Shown: positions 27,296 to 41,350, numbered from the stretch's first letter. The stretch is DNA of 41,350 nt from a virus (IMGVR_UViG_3300045988_014834:1-41350), one strand, 5' to 3'. Program-made: numbers and translations. Notes: generated from the sequence alone by a model not told the origin.

Positions 27296-29566
27296 ATGCC
27301 TAATTTATTATACCTGGATACTGAGACATTCTCTGAAGCGGACTTAAAGAAAGTCGGATCGTATGCGTATGCGGAGCATCCGACAACCGAGATTATAATT
27401 TGTACATATGCCATTGATGATGGGCCCGTAGAAGTATGGGATTGCACTTCCGAACCGGTAATGCCAATAAGCCTCCGCATTGCGCTGCGCAATGTTATGC
27501 GCGGACGTATGAGAATTGTAGGCCATAACTTTTTAATGTTCGACAGGCTTGTTATGAAGCACTGCTGGGGCGTTGATATCAAGCCAAGAAACACCATTGA
27601 CACGATGATTAGAGCGTTTCGTCACGCGTTGCCGGGGTCACTTGATGCGCTGTGCGAAGTGCTGGGCGTATCTGCGGACAACGCTAAAGATAAACGCGGC
27701 AAGGCGCTGATTCAGCGTTTCTCTAAACCCACGCCGAAGAACTACAAAATCCGCCGCTACACCGCTGAAACTCACCCTGACGAGTGGGCTCTGTTCATCA
27801 AGTATGCCGTGAGCGACATCACTGCGATGCGTGAAGTCTTCCATAAGCTGCCGCGTTGGGGTAACTCAGAGTTTGAAGACCGCGTACTGGAACTGGACCA
27901 GTTAATCAACGACCGAGGCTTCTTTGTTGACACGGCTCTTGCTGAGGCGGCGGTAGCGGCAGTGGAACGCCACAAGCAAGAGCTAAAAAACGAGGCCCGC
28001 GCGAAATTCGGGGGGAAACTAACTGGCAAAGATTTCCTGCCAATCCTTCGGGAACTGGCACCGGCCTACAACATTTATAATGCGCAGAAAGCAACGCTCG
28101 AAGGTTTGCTAGAGGACGACGACCTGCCTGATGATGCGCGTACAATCATTGAGATGCGCCTCGGCGCGGCCTCCACGGCGTCGACAAAATACAAACCGCT
28201 CCTGCTAGGACGGTCCAAAGACGGACGGCGCCGTGGTTGCATCCAGTACGGTGGGGCAAAGCGCACTTTACGATTTGCGGGTAAAGGGTTCCAGCCGCAG
28301 AACCTGTCGCGTGGGTACTACCACGACGACCCAACCAACGAGGAAAAGAAACTCGTACGCCAGCCGTGGGAGTCTGACGAAGACTGGAACCGCAGGCTTA
28401 ACCCGCTATCCTTCGGCATCAATTTGCTTTTAAAGGGTCGGGCGCATCGCCGTTTTGATATATCTAAACTAACGGCCTCAACTGTCCGCAGTTGCATCAT
28501 CCCGGAAAAAGGCAATAAGTTGCTCGTTGCCGACTACTCAAACGTGGAAGGTCGTGGGTTAGCCTGGACGGCGGGGGAGACGTCTGCCCTTGAGACGTTC
28601 CGCGCGGGGATTGATATCTATTGCGCCACAGCTGGTAAGATGTTCGGCATGGACCCTATTGAGCTTAAAGCCACCCGTAAGGACCTGCGTCAGGTCGGGA
28701 AATGTTGCGAGCTCGGCCTCGGCTACGAGGGGGGCGTAGGGGCCTTCATGACTATGGCTAAAACTTACGGGCTGGACCTCTTTAAAATGACGGAGACAAT
28801 GCGGGGGACATTCCCTGACCATATATGGGCCGCCACTGCCCGAGGTTATGAATGGGCGCGGATCCAGGAGGCTAAGCGACCTCCAAAACCCGGTAAAAAG
28901 GATGAACGGGCCTCTTACGTGTTGCCTAAGGAAGTGTGGCGTACCTGTGATGCTATCAAGCGCATGTGGCGGGAAGCTCACCCGGAAACAGTGAAATTCT
29001 GGAACGACCTTAAGGATTCGGTAATTGCTGCAATCAGAAATCCGGGACGAGAGTTTTGGGCGGGAGCCAGAGTCCGCCTTAACGGCGACAGAGCTATTCG
29101 CATCTGGCGTACTAAAGAGAAAGACAGACAGGGTAACTTTGTGCCAGGTTGGTGGCTGTGCGTGGAGTTGCCGTCCGGACGCATCATGTCCTACCCTGGC
29201 ATAGGCTTAAGCGTGACTAAAGAAACTGACGAGGATGGGCGCGTAACAACTAACGTTCGCATTAAGTACCAGGGTGAAAACCAGACTACCCGCCAGTGGA
29301 CAACTTTGTACACACACGGTGGAAAATTGTGTGAAAACATCATCCAGGCGTTGTGCCGTGATTTACTGGTTAACGGACTCCTGACGGTCGAGGCAGCGGG
29401 CTACCCAATTGTACTTCACGTGCATGACGAATGCGTCGCCGAAACACCAGACACACCGGAGTACACGGTTAACGAGATGGGTGACCTGTTATGCTCATTA
29501 CCTGAATGGGCTGAAGGATTCCCACTAACATGGGCCGGGGAAGAGGTGTACCGTTATGCTAAGTAA
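27296..29566 (+). CDS. DNA polymerase, family A, with 3'-5' exonuclease domain, 756 aa
   Basis: Exo I motif YLDTETF; PolA motif A DYSNVE, motif B K..G.YG, motif C VHDE. Confidence 0.85.
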   Translation: MPNLLYLDTETFSEADLKKVGSYAYAEHPTTEIIICTYAIDDGPVEVWDCTSEPVMPISLRIALRNVMRGRMRIVGHNFLMFDRLVMKHCWGVDIKPRNTIDTMIRAFRHALPGSLDALCEVLGVSADNAKDKRGKALIQRFSKPTPKNYKIRRYTAETHPDEWALFIKYAVSDITAMREVFHKLPRWGNSEFEDRVLELDQLINDRGFFVDTALAEAAVAAVERHKQELKNEARAKFGGKLTGKDFLPILRELAPAYNIYNAQKATLEGLLEDDDLPDDARTIIEMRLGAASTASTKYKPLLLGRSKDGRRRGCIQYGGAKRTLRFAGKGFQPQNLSRGYYHDDPTNEEKKLVRQPWESDEDWNRRLNPLSFGINLLLKGRAHRRFDISKLTASTVRSCIIPEKGNKLLVADYSNVEGRGLAWTAGETSALETFRAGIDIYCATAGKMFGMDPIELKATRKDLRQVGKCCELGLGYEGGVGAFMTMAKTYGLDLFKMTETMRGTFPDHIWAATARGYEWARIQEAKRPPKPGKKDERASYVLPKEVWRTCDAIKRMWREAHPETVKFWNDLKDSVIAAIRNPGREFWAGARVRLNGDRAIRIWRTKEKDRQGNFVPGWWLCVELPSGRIMSYPGIGLSVTKETDEDGRVTTNVRIKYQGENQTTRQWTTLYTHGGKLCENIIQALCRDLLVNGLLTVEAAGYPIVLHVHDECVAETPDTPEYTVNEMGDLLCSLPEWAEGFPLTWAGEEVYRYAK

Positions 29567-29773: not shown

Positions 29774-29922
29774 CGATGTTTGTATTTTGGTCGACAGTAA
29801 CCCTGCTCGCACTGTTACTCGGCGCGGGAATAGCCGCGATGTTCTGTTATGGCCTGTTCTTTAAGTTTGTCGGTGTTGCCGTTCTGGGAGGGGCTTTCCT
29901 TACTTGGGTTCTGCGCTCATGA
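29770..29922 (+). CDS. Small membrane protein, 50 aa
   Basis: ATGA overlaps on both sides; two hydrophobic segments. Confidence 0.3.
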   Translation: MTMFVFWSTVTLLALLLGAGIAAMFCYGLFFKFVGVAVLGGAFLTWVLRS

Positions 29923-30203
29923 CTAAAGAGGGCCGCGTACAGAAATACGCAAAGGAGCGATTCGAGGCCCTCGGGGGCCTCGTTCGAAAGCTGTCTTATG
30001 AGGGACGCTCCGGCGCCCCCGACCTCCTGGTAATTCTCCCCGGCGGCATTGTCTGGTTTGTCGAGGTTAAGAAAGACGAAAATACGAAGCCAGACCCGCA
30101 CCAGTTACGTGAACATGAGAGATTTCGAAAACGTGGTGCAAATGTTTTTGTCGTCGGTTCGTTTAAACAGGTTGACGACCTAATAGCGAACTATTATAGT
30201 TAG
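29919..30203 (+). CDS. VRR-NUC domain nuclease, 94 aa
   Basis: Core PDLLVILPGGIVWFVEVKK (D...E.K PD-(D/E)XK pattern). Confidence 0.55.
   Translation: MTKEGRVQKYAKERFEALGGLVRKLSYEGRSGAPDLLVILPGGIVWFVEVKKDENTKPDPHQLREHERFRKRGANVFVVGSFKQVDDLIANYYS
30172..30200 (+). promoter_or_regulatory. Middle promoter TTGACG, 17 nt, TATAGT with palindrome AATAG-N4-CTATT (30182-30195)
   Basis: ttgacgacctAATAGcgaaCTATTatagtt, inside the 3' end of the VRR-NUC gene. Confidence 0.5.
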
Positions 30204-30233: not shown

Positions 30234-30425
30234 ATGAAACACGAATATGACCGCAAGCCAGCCCGTGACATCGTACCAGGTGACATGATTTTCAACGTTA
30301 AGACACGCCAGCCTGTTGCCGTTGATACGGTGTTCGTCGAGTCGAACGGTAAACTGGTTATCGAGGACGTAACCGGTAACGTTACGGCGTTTGGGCGTAA
30401 AGAGTTAGTTCTGGTGTTGAAATGA
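30234..30425 (+). CDS. Hypothetical protein, 63 aa
   Basis: AAGGAAT upstream of the ATG. Confidence 0.4.
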   Translation: MKHEYDRKPARDIVPGDMIFNVKTRQPVAVDTVFVESNGKLVIEDVTGNVTAFGRKELVLVLK

Positions 30426-30919
30426 ACAAATTAACTAGAAGGCCTGATATTGAGGAGGCGAAACGTCTTCTTAACTATGACCCCGAAACAGGCGTATTTA
30501 CACGGAAAGTAAGCATAAAAGGTAGGAATGCGGGGGAGGTAGCCGGGGGTCCAAACGACAAAGAATACATAGTTATCACCGTATCTGGTGTAAGAATAAA
30601 AGCCCACCATCTGGCATGGGCTTTCGTCTACGGAGAATATCATAATGGTGAGCTTGACCATAAAGACCGTAACAGGGCTAATAACGCCATAAATAATATA
30701 AGGCCAGCAACCAGGAGCCAGCAGATTCAGAACCGAGACTGCGCATCACATAACACTAGCGGTGCGATAGGGGTTTACCAAATACCCTCTGGCAGGTGGC
30801 GCGCCAGAATAGGCGTCAATAACAAATACATCCACCTTGGCTATTTTGACACTATAGAAGAAGCGTCGCGCGTATACCAAAGAGCCGCGGAAATATACTT
30901 CGGGGAGTTCAGGGCATGA
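30422..30919 (+). CDS. HNH homing endonuclease with C-terminal AP2-like DNA-binding domain, 165 aa
   Basis: HNH motif HH...ELDHKDRNRANN..NN; C-terminal GVYQ..SGRWRARI...LGYF.T.EEA..Y. Confidence 0.65.
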   Translation: MNKLTRRPDIEEAKRLLNYDPETGVFTRKVSIKGRNAGEVAGGPNDKEYIVITVSGVRIKAHHLAWAFVYGEYHNGELDHKDRNRANNAINNIRPATRSQQIQNRDCASHNTSGAIGVYQIPSGRWRARIGVNNKYIHLGYFDTIEEASRVYQRAAEIYFGEFRA

Positions 30920-32340
30920 GTAAGTTTAGGCGCAGGGAATATCAGAAAATAATGACGTCGTTTATGTTACGGCACCCACGTTGCAATATCTGGTGCGGCA
31001 TGGGAGGGGGTAAAACCTCCTCTACTATGTGGGTGCTCAACAGATTGTTTCGCAACGGGCAGCTTACTGAAGAGGACCGAGTGTTAATTCTGGCTCCTTT
31101 ACGTGTTGCGTCAGGTACGTGGCCAGCGGAACAGGCACGTTGGAATTTCCCATGCCTGAGTGTCGTAGATGCCACCGGTTCAGAGAAGCGCCGCATCGCG
31201 GCGCTGGAGTCCGACGCTAACGTGGTATGCACCAACTATGAAGTTATCGAGTGGCTTATTGACTATTACGGCAAAGACGACTGGCCTTTCACCGTTATCG
31301 TTGCCGATGAAAGCACGAAGCTAAAATCATTCCGCAGCCGTTCTGGCGGTAGCAAGCGGGCAAAGGCGCTTAGTAAAGTGGCGTTCGGAAAGGTTAAGCG
31401 TTTCATTAACCTGACGGGCACACCGTCGCCAAACGGCCTCAAGGACTTGTGGGGGCAGAACTGGTTTATCGACGCTGGCGAGCGACTCGGTTCTTCATAC
31501 ACGGCATTCACCGACCGATGGTTTAACTCGGTGCAGAAAGGTAAGTCGGCTATGGCGCGGGGGTATCACGCACGACCTGGTGCAGATAATGAAATTCACC
31601 AGAAGATGAAGGACATTAGTCTCACGATTGACGCCGCCGAGTGGTTCGGATGCGAAGCGCCGATTATTGTACCGGTTGAAATTGACCTGCCTAAGAAAGC
31701 ACGTCAGGCGTATATCGATATGGAGGAGAAGCTATTCGCGGAACTGGAGAGCGGAGAAGTCGAAGCGGCTAACGCCGCGGCGAAGACCTCAAAGTGTTTG
31801 CAGATTGCGTCTGGTGCCGTGTATGTGTCAGGACCAGACGGAGAAGCAACCAAAGACTGGGAGAAAGTGCACGACACGAAACTGGATGCGCTGGAGTCGA
31901 TTGTTGAGGAGTTACAGGGCGCGCCGTTACTTGTGGCCTATCAGTTCAAGCACGAACTGGAGCGCATCCTTAAGCGGTTCCCGCAGGCACAGGCGTTTGC
32001 CAAAGGTGTGAAGGGTAATAAGCAGATGGAAGCGTGGAACCGCGGTGAAATCGAAATATTATGCGTACACCCTGCGTCAGCCGGGCATGGTTTGAATTTG
32101 CAGGACGGCGGACATCATCTGGCGTTTATTTCGCAAGGGTGGAACCTTGAGCACTATTTGCAGGTTGTCGAGCGCATAGGCCCAGTTCGCCAGAAACAGG
32201 CGGGCCACGAACGCCCTGTGTTCCTTTACCACATTGTTGCTAAAGACACGCTGGACGAGGTTGTTGCCGCGCGTACCGACGAGAAGAAATCGGTACAGGA
32301 AGAATTGCTTAATTACATGAAGAGACGAGGTAAGAAATGA
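30916..32340 (+). CDS. SNF2/DEAD-like superfamily 2 helicase, 474 aa
   Basis: Walker A GMGGGKT, DEST box, LTGTPSPN motif. Confidence 0.7.
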   Translation: MSKFRRREYQKIMTSFMLRHPRCNIWCGMGGGKTSSTMWVLNRLFRNGQLTEEDRVLILAPLRVASGTWPAEQARWNFPCLSVVDATGSEKRRIAALESDANVVCTNYEVIEWLIDYYGKDDWPFTVIVADESTKLKSFRSRSGGSKRAKALSKVAFGKVKRFINLTGTPSPNGLKDLWGQNWFIDAGERLGSSYTAFTDRWFNSVQKGKSAMARGYHARPGADNEIHQKMKDISLTIDAAEWFGCEAPIIVPVEIDLPKKARQAYIDMEEKLFAELESGEVEAANAAAKTSKCLQIASGAVYVSGPDGEATKDWEKVHDTKLDALESIVEELQGAPLLVAYQFKHELERILKRFPQAQAFAKGVKGNKQMEAWNRGEIEILCVHPASAGHGLNLQDGGHHLAFISQGWNLEHYLQVVERIGPVRQKQAGHERPVFLYHIVAKDTLDEVVAARTDEKKSVQEELLNYMKRRGKK

Positions 32341-32546
32341 ATAATGAGTTTGATATTGACGCTTGCAACGAATTGATAAAAGCCGCTCTTAATGCCCGCG
32401 AGCAACTGCTTGCCATGCAGTTAAAGCGAGAAATAAAACGTATCAAGGAACTGGAAGAAGAGGTTCTACGACTACGGCAGCAGCGTGACGCGGCTAACGC
32501 TCTTATTCAGGAACAGAACCGAATTATTGCAGGAGATACAGAATGA
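32337..32546 (+). CDS. Small coiled-coil protein, 69 aa
   Basis: Coupled to the helicase; heptad-like charged pattern. Confidence 0.35.
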   Translation: MNNEFDIDACNELIKAALNAREQLLAMQLKREIKRIKELEEEVLRLRQQRDAANALIQEQNRIIAGDTE

Positions 32547-32826: not shown

Positions 32827-32855
32827 AAAAGGCCCCTAAAGGGGCCTTAATTTTA
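32826..32855. terminator. Bidirectional terminator (GGCCCC-TAAA-GGGGCC) between replication arm and tailspike
   Basis: Perfect hairpin with flanking A and T runs. Confidence 0.7.
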
Positions 32856-34721
32856 CTGTTTAACGCGCATAAGCCAGGGGGCATCTGCGGTGTTGAACGC
32901 AAGTACGACAACACTGCCTGGCGGGAGAACTCCCAGACCCAGACTCCCTTTTGCGTAGGTGCTGCCCGCCAGTGGCCATACCTGAACTGTGTTAACCACA
33001 ACGCTGGTAATAGAGCCGCCAATCAGGGTTATGTTTTCTGGCCTTGCACCAACTGTAATGGTGAGCGGCGAGGTAGCTCCCGCAAAAGTTGCCGTGGTGA
33101 CCCCCCGCGCTTTATCACCTTTGTTATTCTCGAACACCATCCCAGTTTTTTCGGCCCCGCCGATACCATCGCCGGATTGCGACCGGAAAAAGTTACTAGA
33201 AATATGAAGCTGTCCAACATGATTATCCACCGAAATACACGCAGAGGTGCTACTACGGAATGTATTCGCTGTGATATCCGTAAAGTTAGCAGTAGAGCCA
33301 AACTGAACCGGGACAGTACCTCCGTTAATGGTGCTGCCAGTTAGCTTGGTCCCTACGCCGGCATCTAACAAAAATGCGTTATTTATATAAGCCTGAGCAC
33401 CGTCAATTAACACAGTATCTGCTCCCGGGCCAATGTTAATAGCGTAATCTGTATCCTGGCCCGCGAACCAACAACTATTAAACTGGGCGGCCCGGACATT
33501 GTCCAGATAGATAAAATTAACATTCGACGGCGAGTCAAAGTTGACGCTGTCAAACATCAATGAAATGGCTTTCGCGGTAGAACTCGCGCCAACCTCAAGA
33601 TGCACCTTAGAGTAAGAATAGAACACGGCAGCCCGGACGAACACACCTTCTACATAATCACCCAGGCTCATACCCGTAACGCCCCGTTCAAAGCGTCCAC
33701 CACTGATAGTAGTGTCGAATGTTTTCAGGGCACCATTCCCGAGACCTACCAGTTGAATATCTTTACCGGTCGTACCGGTTGACGCACAGTTGATAATGTT
33801 GGTTACGATAGTGTTATTAAGTCGGATAAAACCAAACGCTTTATTATCACCATAGCAGTAAGCATTTTTAATAGTCATCAGCCCGACATTTTGCGCCACA
33901 ATCTGCTGCTGGGTGGTAGCTACAGTGTTGGTCATGGTCGCGCCAATAATCATGGGCGAATTAACCTGACTGCTGCCGAAGCCGATACGGAAATGAGGCG
34001 CGTCTACAGTCTGCATGATTTCAGAACGGTCAAAATTCAACTCAATCTGAGACGTGACATTTATTGCCGCGGAAATCTTATAGATCTTTTTCGCAGGGAA
34101 TACTGAGCTCTCAACAGTCCTGACGCCACTCAATGCCGCCGCTTGCAGGGCTGCGGTATCGTCTGTAACTCCATCCCCCTTAGCCCCGAAATCCTCAAAT
34201 GTAAGAACATCACTATTTTTATTATGCTGCGTTCTTGCAACGGCCTCCGTAACTGGTTGCCGGGTTGTTACAAGGGCGTCGCCTAAGTTATCAGCGGGGG
34301 ATAACAACTGACCGCGCAAAGTGATGTCGCCAACGGGACGCCATGCGCCAGACGCAATACCACCAGTTGACGACGGAGAAGAACCGGCCGGTATAACCTT
34401 CGGCAGCAATCCCTGCCAGTAATAGTAATCGTTGTCGCCACCGCCGGCAGACGGCCACAGGACCGATTTATTCCTGTCGTTTGTACTTAGTGTGCCGCCC
34501 GTTGTGAAATCAAAGGATGCCGGTTCGAAGCCGATATCGCGCATGATTGCGGGGAGAGTTTTCTGGGTCTGCCCAGTAACCTGATTTGTCGCGTAATCGA
34601 TATCAGCACCCGTAGCAACACCGCCGGATTTACCCGTGATAACCTCAGCCTCGAAAATCTGGTGTTTCTTGGCGGTCTGTAAATCCGCCAGGCTTAAAAC
34701 GTCACCGCATCCGCTTGACAT
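32853..34721 (-). CDS. Tailspike / receptor-binding protein (probable beta-helix), 622 aa
   Basis: Last gene of the tail operon; Asn/Gly/Thr-rich periodic composition. Confidence 0.55.
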   Translation of the reverse strand: MSSGCGDVLSLADLQTAKKHQIFEAEVITGKSGGVATGADIDYATNQVTGQTQKTLPAIMRDIGFEPASFDFTTGGTLSTNDRNKSVLWPSAGGGDNDYYYWQGLLPKVIPAGSSPSSTGGIASGAWRPVGDITLRGQLLSPADNLGDALVTTRQPVTEAVARTQHNKNSDVLTFEDFGAKGDGVTDDTAALQAAALSGVRTVESSVFPAKKIYKISAAINVTSQIELNFDRSEIMQTVDAPHFRIGFGSSQVNSPMIIGATMTNTVATTQQQIVAQNVGLMTIKNAYCYGDNKAFGFIRLNNTIVTNIINCASTGTTGKDIQLVGLGNGALKTFDTTISGGRFERGVTGMSLGDYVEGVFVRAAVFYSYSKVHLEVGASSTAKAISLMFDSVNFDSPSNVNFIYLDNVRAAQFNSCWFAGQDTDYAINIGPGADTVLIDGAQAYINNAFLLDAGVGTKLTGSTINGGTVPVQFGSTANFTDITANTFRSSTSACISVDNHVGQLHISSNFFRSQSGDGIGGAEKTGMVFENNKGDKARGVTTATFAGATSPLTITVGARPENITLIGGSITSVVVNTVQVWPLAGSTYAKGSLGLGVLPPGSVVVLAFNTADAPWLMRVKQ

Positions 34722-41077: not shown

Positions 41078-41350
41078 GATTTCTACCTTCAAAGATTGCT
41101 TCTAAGCCCATGATAATGTCTATCTCGAACAGGCTAAGCTGTTTTTGCGTAACATCGAGATAGGCTTTCAGGTCTTGCCACGTAACGGATTCTCTTGCGA
41201 ACAATACTACAGCGTCCTCGCGCGCGTGTCGCGTAAACTTAATGTCGCAATACGTCTCAAAGGTGGATATAAAAAGGGGTGGGCATTCTGGCCCACCCCG
41301 TCGCGCTGCACGTTTTTTCTTATCGATTACACCCATCGCGATAAGCGCCT
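41070..41350 (-). CDS. T-like -1 frame extension of the tail chaperone; in the circular genome it continues as 56-170
   Basis: Open minus-strand frame from the stop at 171-173 through the junction to 41070, ending in overlap with the tape measure ATG; no convincing own start codon. Confidence 0.45.
   Translation of the reverse strand, partial: ALIAMGVIDKKKRAARRGGPECPPLFISTFETYCDIKFTRHAREDAVVLFARESVTWQDLKAYLDVTQKQLSLFEIDIIMGLEAIFEGRNHG
41276..41299 (-). terminator. Terminator-like hairpin GGGGTGGGC-ATTCTG-GCCCACCCC with T5 on the minus strand
   Basis: Read from sequence; lies inside the chaperone extension frame. Confidence 0.4.
41296..41350. repeat. Second copy of the 55-bp terminal repeat
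   Basis: Identical to 1-55. Confidence 0.9.

Follow-up and report, generated by a model that had tools for sequence, protein, structure and literature searches.

The viral DNA window IMGVR_UViG_3300045988_014834:1-41350 (the whole stretch analysed here, 41,350 nucleotides (nt) long) carries, between a short conserved open reading frame (ORF) and a helicase gene, a gene for a 165-amino-acid (aa) protein with HNH and AP2 domains, here called HNH-A. This gene is very probably a free-standing homing endonuclease gene (HEG) that is mobile now or was so until recently. A preliminary description of the sequence had proposed a free-standing insertion of this kind, and the proposal is borne out by the patchy presence of the gene, by its low synonymous divergence (dS), by a linked tract in the adjacent helicase gene and by its conserved catalytic residues. 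HNH-A is far younger than the genes that flank it, and its recent spread has taken in both Kagunavirus and Jerseyvirus backbones. The genes concerned are as follows.

30422 to 30919, plus strand: HNH-A, putative free-standing HNH-AP2 homing endonuclease gene, 165 aa (ORF call, Pfam, PHROGs and fold model).
30234 to 30425, plus strand: conserved 63-aa ORF, function not assigned, left flank of the cassette site (phrog_4879, E 2e-46).
30916 to 32340, plus strand: SNF2-family helicase gene, 474 aa, no intein (Pfam SNF2-rel_dom, phrog_62).
29904 to 30203, plus strand: VRR-NUC nuclease gene, not adjacent to HNH-A (Pfam VRR_NUC, E 2e-4, below the cut-off; phrog_93, E 6e-34).

The backbone of the window is about 91% identical to those of the Escherichia Kagunaviruses HSE2 and P AB-2017 (Guernseyvirinae), and on this similarity the genome is assigned to Kagunavirus. 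The window copy was compared with 11 other carriers. Nucleotide identity was 93-99% in HNH-A versus 80-94% in the flanking genes. The dS values were 0.01-0.35 for HNH-A, 0.51-1.06 for the helicase (from nt 121 to the end), 0.49-1.31 for VRR-NUC and 0.25-0.65 for the 63-aa ORF, and HNH-A had the lowest value in all 11 pairs. Against the Salmonella phage STP03, for example, dS was 0.02 in HNH-A and 0.80 in the helicase. The closest copies to that of the window include those of the Salmonella Jerseyviruses STP03 (98.4%) and SaTp-04 (98.0%); the copy in the Kagunavirus fFiEco03 is more distant (96.3%). The ratio of nonsynonymous to synonymous divergence (dN/dS) was about 0.05 in the older pairs of HNH-A alleles, and the protein is therefore under purifying selection and maintained. 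For the 63-aa ORF, dN/dS versus relatives was about 0.01-0.1.

The second line of evidence lies in the sequences on either side of the endonuclease body, where two features were recognised.

30916 to 31030, plus strand: HNH-linked helicase 5′ tract, made up of the surrogate start MSKFRRRE and, after it, a stretch that hitch-hikes or is co-converted (allele association and diversity).
30422 to 30445, plus strand: first 8 codons of HNH-A (MNKLTRRP), a diverged copy of a helicase 5′ end (comparison with relatives).

The tract was followed in 12 genomes with HNH-A and 45-46 without it, which include close relatives of one another. All 12 carriers share the helicase 5′ end ATGAGTAAGTTTAGGCGCAGGGAATAYCAGAAAATAATGACGTCGTTTATG; at the same stretch, HNH-less genomes have ...TTTCAAAGGCGCGARTACCAGAAGCTCATGACTTCGTTCATG or either of two other variants. 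The HNH-less CAAAGGCGCGAR...AAGCTCATGACTTCGTTC corresponds to AGGCGCAGGGAA...AAAATAATGACGTCGTTT in carriers, and the HNH-less stretch CAAAGGCGCGAG to the carrier stretch AGGCGCAGGGAA. Allele association with HNH-A declines along the helicase gene, from about 1.0 (nt 14-18) through about 0.9 (nt 33-54) and about 0.7 (nt 63-84) to about 0.5 as far as nt ~115, and it is zero past nt 120. Third-position diversity among carriers follows a similar course: 0.13-0.19 in HNH codons 1-60, 0.03-0.06 in HNH codons 121-166, 0.03-0.05 in helicase nt 1-60, 0.21 at nt 61-90, 0.32 at nt 91-120 and about 0.4, the background value, beyond nt 120. This trough centres the spreading unit on the 3′ end of HNH-A and the initial ~60 nt of the helicase; in all, ~60-115 nt of the helicase 5′ end travel with HNH-A. 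On the upstream side no linked or co-conversion tract was found: there was no association in the 63-aa ORF or VRR-NUC, and diversity in the 63-aa ORF was not reduced (0.09-0.35 in carriers, the same as in non-carriers). The graded tract agrees with what is expected from co-conversion, as a population-level signature and not as the outcome of a cross. Unusual conservation of the putative target was absent from HNH-less alleles, their diversity at nt 31-60 (0.22) being within the range of the other bins. Two loci, L013 and L016, contain a different cassette (the type 2 methyltransferase-like gene described below) and still have the HNH-type tract from helicase nt 33 on, together with HNH-less sequence at nt 13-24. 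They are recombinants with a crossover at about nt 24-33, which implies replacement of one cassette by another.

The 5′ end of HNH-A itself is derived from a helicase gene. The HNH-A copies of STP03 and SaTp-04 begin with 24 nt (ATGAGTAAATTCACTAGAAGACCT) that are identical at 24/24 positions to the helicase start of the HNH-less locus L046, and past nt 24 the two sequences diverge completely. The start of the window copy (ATGAACAAATTAACTAGAAGGCCT, encoding MNKLTRRP) matches the helicase starts of the HNH-less L043, L047 and L048 at 21 of 24 nt and the helicase start of its own genome at only 13. With this degree of divergence within the window, the copy can be recognised only by comparison with relatives, and the repeat finder returned nothing convincing as flanking repeats there. 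Endonuclease-specific sequence begins at codon 9. Since the first 8 codons are a copy of a helicase 5′ end, the element is placed within the start of the helicase gene, for which it brings a surrogate. As judged from these alignments, the insert is window 30446-30939, placed in frame after helicase codon 8 of the HNH-less sequence (between MSKFTRRP and YQK...), and it consists of the HNH body, a stop codon and the replacement helicase start MSKFRRRE (ATGAGTAAGTTTAGGCGCAGGGAA).

Patchy presence of the gene had been predicted in the preliminary description, and this is what was found. A 3.1-kb region of the window matched 453 phage records in GenBank (331 from Salmonella, 103 from Escherichia and the remainder from others; RefSeq/GenBank duplicates are included in the record counts). 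HNH-A was present in 42 of these 453 flank-matching records, in 36 of them at full length and always as one copy per record. Orthologues at the same position are already annotated in GenBank, among them STP03_071 and QNO11673.1 of vB_EcoS_fFiEco03 ('putative homing endonuclease'), the note on the latter citing an HHpred match of 99.4% to I-HmuI. Targeted literature searches found no published comparative or experimental analysis of HNH-A.

In IMG/VR, 49 loci were retrieved via the 63-aa ORF and classed by what lies between this ORF and the helicase. HNH-A occupied the junction in 4 of them, and a different HNH-AP2 gene of 164 aa (HNH-B; ~27% aa identity to HNH-A over 140 aa) in one. A type 1 C5-methyltransferase (274-324 aa) was found in 15 loci and a 227-aa C5-methyltransferase-like gene (type 2; Pfam 18.8 bits, under the cut-off of 22) in 11. 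The junction was empty in a further 11 loci, in which the stop of the 63-aa ORF and the start of the helicase overlap as ATGA (5 of these with a LAGLIDADG intein at helicase codon 33), and also in the remaining 7, which have a second junction type; the two empty types read AAATGAGTAAG... and ...GGTTAATTATGTCT.... When related genomes were compared for an uninterrupted junction, precise empty-site alleles were seen, e.g., in fPoEco01 and P AB-2017 (L019), the latter among the nearest backbone relatives of the window. Thus the classification across loci establishes that empty-site alleles exist, close backbone relatives included. In GenBank, HNH-B was full length in 8 records, and at a query coverage of at least 80% the type 1 methyltransferase was found in 83 records and the type 2 gene in 84, some of the type 2 matches falling in other phage groups. 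Every cassette type begins at the ATGA that closes the 63-aa ORF (including L003, L004, L007, L009 and L036, at locus position ~4189). This junction of the 63-aa ORF with the helicase is a multi-cassette hot spot. In one locus (L024, 4189-5113) the type 1 methyltransferase is split into overlapping ORFs of 82 and 278 aa, by a frameshift or a sequencing error.

Several records looked like decaying copies of HNH-A and were set aside. The remnant in fmb-p1 (L054), which consists of the first ~98 nt of HNH-A, was dropped as an example of decay in a homing cycle, the record being rearranged or inverted at that place: the helicase start is on the other strand about 1.5 kb away, and the gene annotations there are wrong-stranded. 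JD01 (L055, 3495-3710) has a 1430-nt, out-of-frame deletion relative to PIZ SAE-01E2 that begins at HNH nt 77, stops close to the C-terminus of the helicase intein and removes the first 33 helicase codons (the N-extein) with most of Walker A; the genome may be defective or unusual, or the deletion may be an artefact of assembly, and it was not relied on. The frameshifted copies in SS3e and in M01/CR01 were not counted as pseudogenes. The SS3e record is an old one, and the many fragmented genes of M01 point to sequencing errors.

The ORF at 30422-30919 (plus strand, ATG start, TGA stop) had been described beforehand as encoding HNH and AP2 domains, and this was confirmed by the ORF call, by Pfam and by the PHROGs match to phrog_99 ('HNH endonuclease', E 1e-60). 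The two domains were placed as follows.

30599 to 30724, plus strand: predicted HNH_3 nuclease domain, aa 60-101 (Pfam PF13392; E 9.1e-10, 38.5 bits against a cut-off of 24.8).
30764 to 30895, plus strand: predicted AP2-type DNA-binding domain, aa 115-158 (Pfam PF00847, phmmer and Foldseek; Pfam E 2.6e-8, 34.5 bits, just over the cut-off of 33.3).

A search of 5.8 billion proteins returned 105 homologues, mostly 155-180 aa long and with the same two domains. An alignment of 48 family members shows D79, H80 and N104 in every sequence and a conservation of at least 90% for H62, N88 and N92. The codons for D79-H80 lie at 30656-30661 and that for N104 at 30731-30733, just beyond the Pfam envelope. 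Judged by these residues, the catalytic D79-H80...N104 core of HNH-A is intact and of the D-H...N...N type seen in HNH enzymes; the roles of the residues, with N104 as the putative metal ligand, are assigned by likeness to I-HmuI. An AlphaFold2 model built on the same 48-sequence alignment had a mean predicted local distance difference test score (pLDDT) of 90.9, with values below 50 at residues 1-4 only; its structured part begins at residue 10. The best fold match of the model in the PDB was I-HmuI (1u3e; Foldseek E 9e-4), over 104 columns that span the N-terminal beta domain and the HNH core. At the level of sequence the similarity to I-HmuI is weak (phmmer E 0.07, ~25% identity). The AP2 domain of the model comprises strands 118-120, 126-132 and 135-142 and a helix at 145-163. 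This C-terminal domain superposes on the GCC-box-binding domain of AtERF1 with a root-mean-square deviation of 0.9 Å over 50 columns (Foldseek), and phmmer matched HNH-A to the AP2 domain of WRI1 (E 1.2e-7). The domain order HNH and then AP2 is established for homing endonucleases of phages, cyanobacteria and protists (PMC10448857, citing earlier work).

Three more distant homologues (in L061, L062 and L063) all lie directly upstream of a helicase gene and have different genes upstream of themselves, a position that suggests the helicase 5′ end as the target. The one in L062 (P0003, 1062-1580, Logan contig SRR33676029_51607) is an HNH-AP2 protein 67% identical to HNH-A. It begins with MRFQRREYQKLMT, which matches the Kagunavirus helicase start MSKFQRREYQKLMT and is unlike the start of its own neighbouring helicase (MSRFIRRPYQIEMT); the helicase-like part is ~13 codons long. 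By sequence comparison, this start appears to be a relic of an earlier host genome that was carried along with the element, and P0003 represents an independent second case of a putatively helicase-derived N-terminus. The homologue in L063 has its own Shine-Dalgarno sequence and a start that is not helicase-like.

Taken as a homing system, HNH-A would work in the following way. It probably has no promoter of its own and is probably co-transcribed with its neighbours, its translation being coupled to theirs via the two ATGA overlaps. The protein is predicted to be a monomer in which an I-HmuI-like N-terminal beta domain and an HNH active site are followed by a C-terminal AP2 domain for sequence recognition. 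During mixed infection it would nick or cut the helicase 5′ region (~nt 1-60) of HNH-less phages, and repair from the HNH-positive genome would transfer HNH-A to the recipient together with the helicase 5′ tract beside it. Carriers would be immune, because the insertion splits the site and the linked substitutions change it. As to the specific target region, we see about an even chance that it is helicase nt ~1-60 of HNH-less phages. A broader proposal, which we regard as improbable, joins an in-frame 'start capture' mode of insertion with an ATGA docking site at which endonuclease and C5-methyltransferase cassettes behave as competing alleles. In start capture, an HEG would take over the translation-initiation region and first codons of an essential gene and bring a surrogate start and N-terminus in return. 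Two independent breakpoints of this type were found, one after codon 8 (HNH-A) and one after about codon 13 (L062). In the same proposal the methyltransferases might shield the helicase 5′ target from cleavage.

Some points weigh against this reading or limit it. Nuclease activity, target site and super-Mendelian inheritance are predictions from sequence and model for HNH-A and for its close homologues alike. Methyltransferase-like cassettes without any nuclease occupy the same junction, so occupancy of the site does not in itself need an endonuclease. Some of the genomes in which the tract was followed are closely related, and the diversity trough could in principle reflect a single recent recombinational spread without targeted cleavage. 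A scan for a promoter or terminator of HNH-A, made with a weak consensus method, returned sites no commoner than in shuffled sequence. The AT bias of the gene is also weak: it had been described as more AT-rich than the flanking genes, and the direction stands (46.8% GC versus 51.0% for the window) with only a mild difference, at the 13th percentile of 498-nt windows (about -1.2 standard deviations), while GC at third codon positions (GC3) is 47% versus 56-59% in polA, the 63-aa ORF and the helicase.

The strongest competitor to homing, in our judgement still rather unlikely, is a nuclease kept for the benefit of the phage, which would cut or nick the DNA of co-infecting relatives, and so exclude their markers or disturb their replication, or would serve replication or recombination beside the helicase, homing being secondary or lost. 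Purifying selection in the older pairs (dN/dS ~0.05) and the location of HNH-A in the replication module speak for such a role. There is a published precedent for an endonuclease in the competition between co-infecting phages (PMC11620839), and, as a general caveat, HEG-like genes can be domesticated (PMC10448857). However, about 90% of close relatives manage without HNH-A, and its very low dS and hitch-hiking tract show that the gene itself spreads. A benefit to the phage and homing are compatible and do not exclude each other. Less probable again is a passive accessory cassette, moved by a recombination hot spot through its conserved flanks, with the HNH protein idle in the transfer and maybe inactive. 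This would agree with the presence of at least four unrelated cassettes (two HNH-AP2 and two C5-methyltransferase-like genes) at the same ATGA junction, and with the inter-cassette recombinants L013 and L016. It does not sit well with catalytic residues that are invariant across a family of ~40% identity, nor with the convergence of two HNH-AP2 genes and several distant homologues on the helicase start. The tract, moreover, is one-sided and graded, as expected for breaks beginning in the helicase 5′ end, and the alleles of HNH-A are 93-99% identical in nucleotide sequence versus 72-100% aa identity among those of the type 1 methyltransferase. A packaging nuclease like HK97 gp74, acting as a partner of terminase, shares with HNH-A only the HNH superfamily (such proteins are discussed in PMC10448857). 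HNH-A has the 63-aa ORF and the helicase as its neighbours within the replication module and is not beside terminase, most relatives package their DNA without it, and it has an AP2 sequence-recognition domain; by its position and dispensability this explanation is effectively refuted. A mobile homing endonuclease gene remains our preferred explanation.

Among known systems, the closest experimentally studied analogue of HNH-A is mobE of phage T4, a promoterless free-standing HNH HEG between nrdA and nrdB that nicks the 5′ region of nrdB and mobilises a nearby intron along with itself (PMC2790892). Each is a free-standing HNH gene inserted between two others and has no obvious promoter of its own, both have the point of recombination or linkage in the 5′ end of an essential downstream gene, and both can have a self-splicing, co-mobilisable neighbour, the nrdB intron in T4 and the helicase intein in Jerseyvirus relatives. 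In many Jerseyviruses (e.g., PIZ SAE-01E2) HNH-A is located 99 nt upstream of the helicase intein, and by analogy it is conceivable that HNH-A co-mobilises this intein. The two systems also differ. The DNA-binding part of MobE is not AP2, whereas HNH-A ends in AP2; HEGs of the T4 Mob class combine HNH-3 with a C-terminal zinc finger (PMC10448857). MobE is encoded intergenically, whereas HNH-A is joined to the 8 opening codons of its target gene and provides a substitute start. Finally, the activity, nick site and homing of MobE are experimental, and HNH-A is known from sequence and model.

The intein itself is a 1041-nt element (Hint plus LAGLIDADG) found in many Jerseyvirus relatives (e.g., L041, L043, L046-L048 and L056) in the helicase P-loop, between GxGK and C.... 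Its site corresponds to window 31014/31015, i.e., helicase codon 33/34 in Walker A, and intein alleles carry linked silent variants just past it (ACAAGC vs ACCTCG).

I-HmuI of phage SPO1 (1U3E) has its gene within a group I intron and a helix-turn-helix domain at its C-terminal end. It is a nicking HNH homing endonuclease and the best structural match to the HNH-A model, from which it differs in that HNH-A is free-standing, ends in AP2 and is only ~25% identical. The fold match covers the I-HmuI beta domain and the single HNH site, and HNH-A may nick one strand or cut both. HNH-A falls outside the intron-encoded class, as it is a separate ORF and HNH-less alleles join the flanking coding sequences directly (no Rfam intron search was made). 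The IPA-HNH HEGs of ICP1-like phages resemble HNH-A in having HNH on the N-terminal side and AP2 on the C-terminal side, and in lying beside essential replication genes at boundaries of genetic exchange. Their HNH domains are reported to be too divergent for a Pfam HNH_3 match (PMC10448857), whereas HNH-A gives a regular one (38.5 bits) and is thus set apart by the published description.

In the window, 4-nt ATGA overlaps join HNH-A to the 63-aa ORF (30422-30425, where the stop codon of the 63-aa ORF overlaps the start codon of HNH-A) and to the helicase (30916-30919). Overlaps of 4 nt on both sides had been reported, and they are present, with the 63-aa ORF and not VRR-NUC as the upstream partner. 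The naming of VRR-NUC as upstream neighbour was mistaken, since that gene ends at 30203 and the 63-aa ORF (30234-30425) intervenes. HNH-A is the sole HNH-AP2 gene of the window; no second one was found. Nucleotides 1-55 of the window are identical to 41296-41350, and because of this terminal identity the window is taken to be a circularly closed assembly and a complete phage genome of ~41.3 kb.

Downstream, the helicase end overlaps by 4 nt with a 69-aa coiled-coil-like ORF (32337-32546, phrog_13851, 44% GC), which is followed by a 622-aa ORF on the minus strand (32853-34721) at a place where relatives have annotated, highly variable tailspike genes. Upstream, the 3′ third of the DNA polymerase gene (28567-29566) is ~68-72% identical to most relatives and 90-94% identical to L013, L025, L040, L046 and L060, among which the states of the HNH site differ; the group thus has two deeply divergent polymerase alleles. 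In some relatives the polymerase contains an intein or is much longer (~1030 aa).

The homing class to which HNH-A is assigned is textbook knowledge, its orthologues are already annotated, and the general understanding of homing endonucleases is unchanged by our findings. New here are comparative data that speak for recent homing, an inferred target region, an arrangement of the start-capture kind and a junction that takes several cassettes. If active, HNH-A would be a sequence-specific nickase or endonuclease of small size (165 aa) that uses an AP2 domain for recognition, and few such enzymes have been characterised. It offers a natural example of homing in a group of siphoviruses (Kagunavirus, Jerseyvirus) that is used for phage therapy and biocontrol. 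The gene crosses between genera of E. coli and Salmonella phages, and, as it drags the helicase 5′ end along, it helps to shape the mosaic replication module of these phages.

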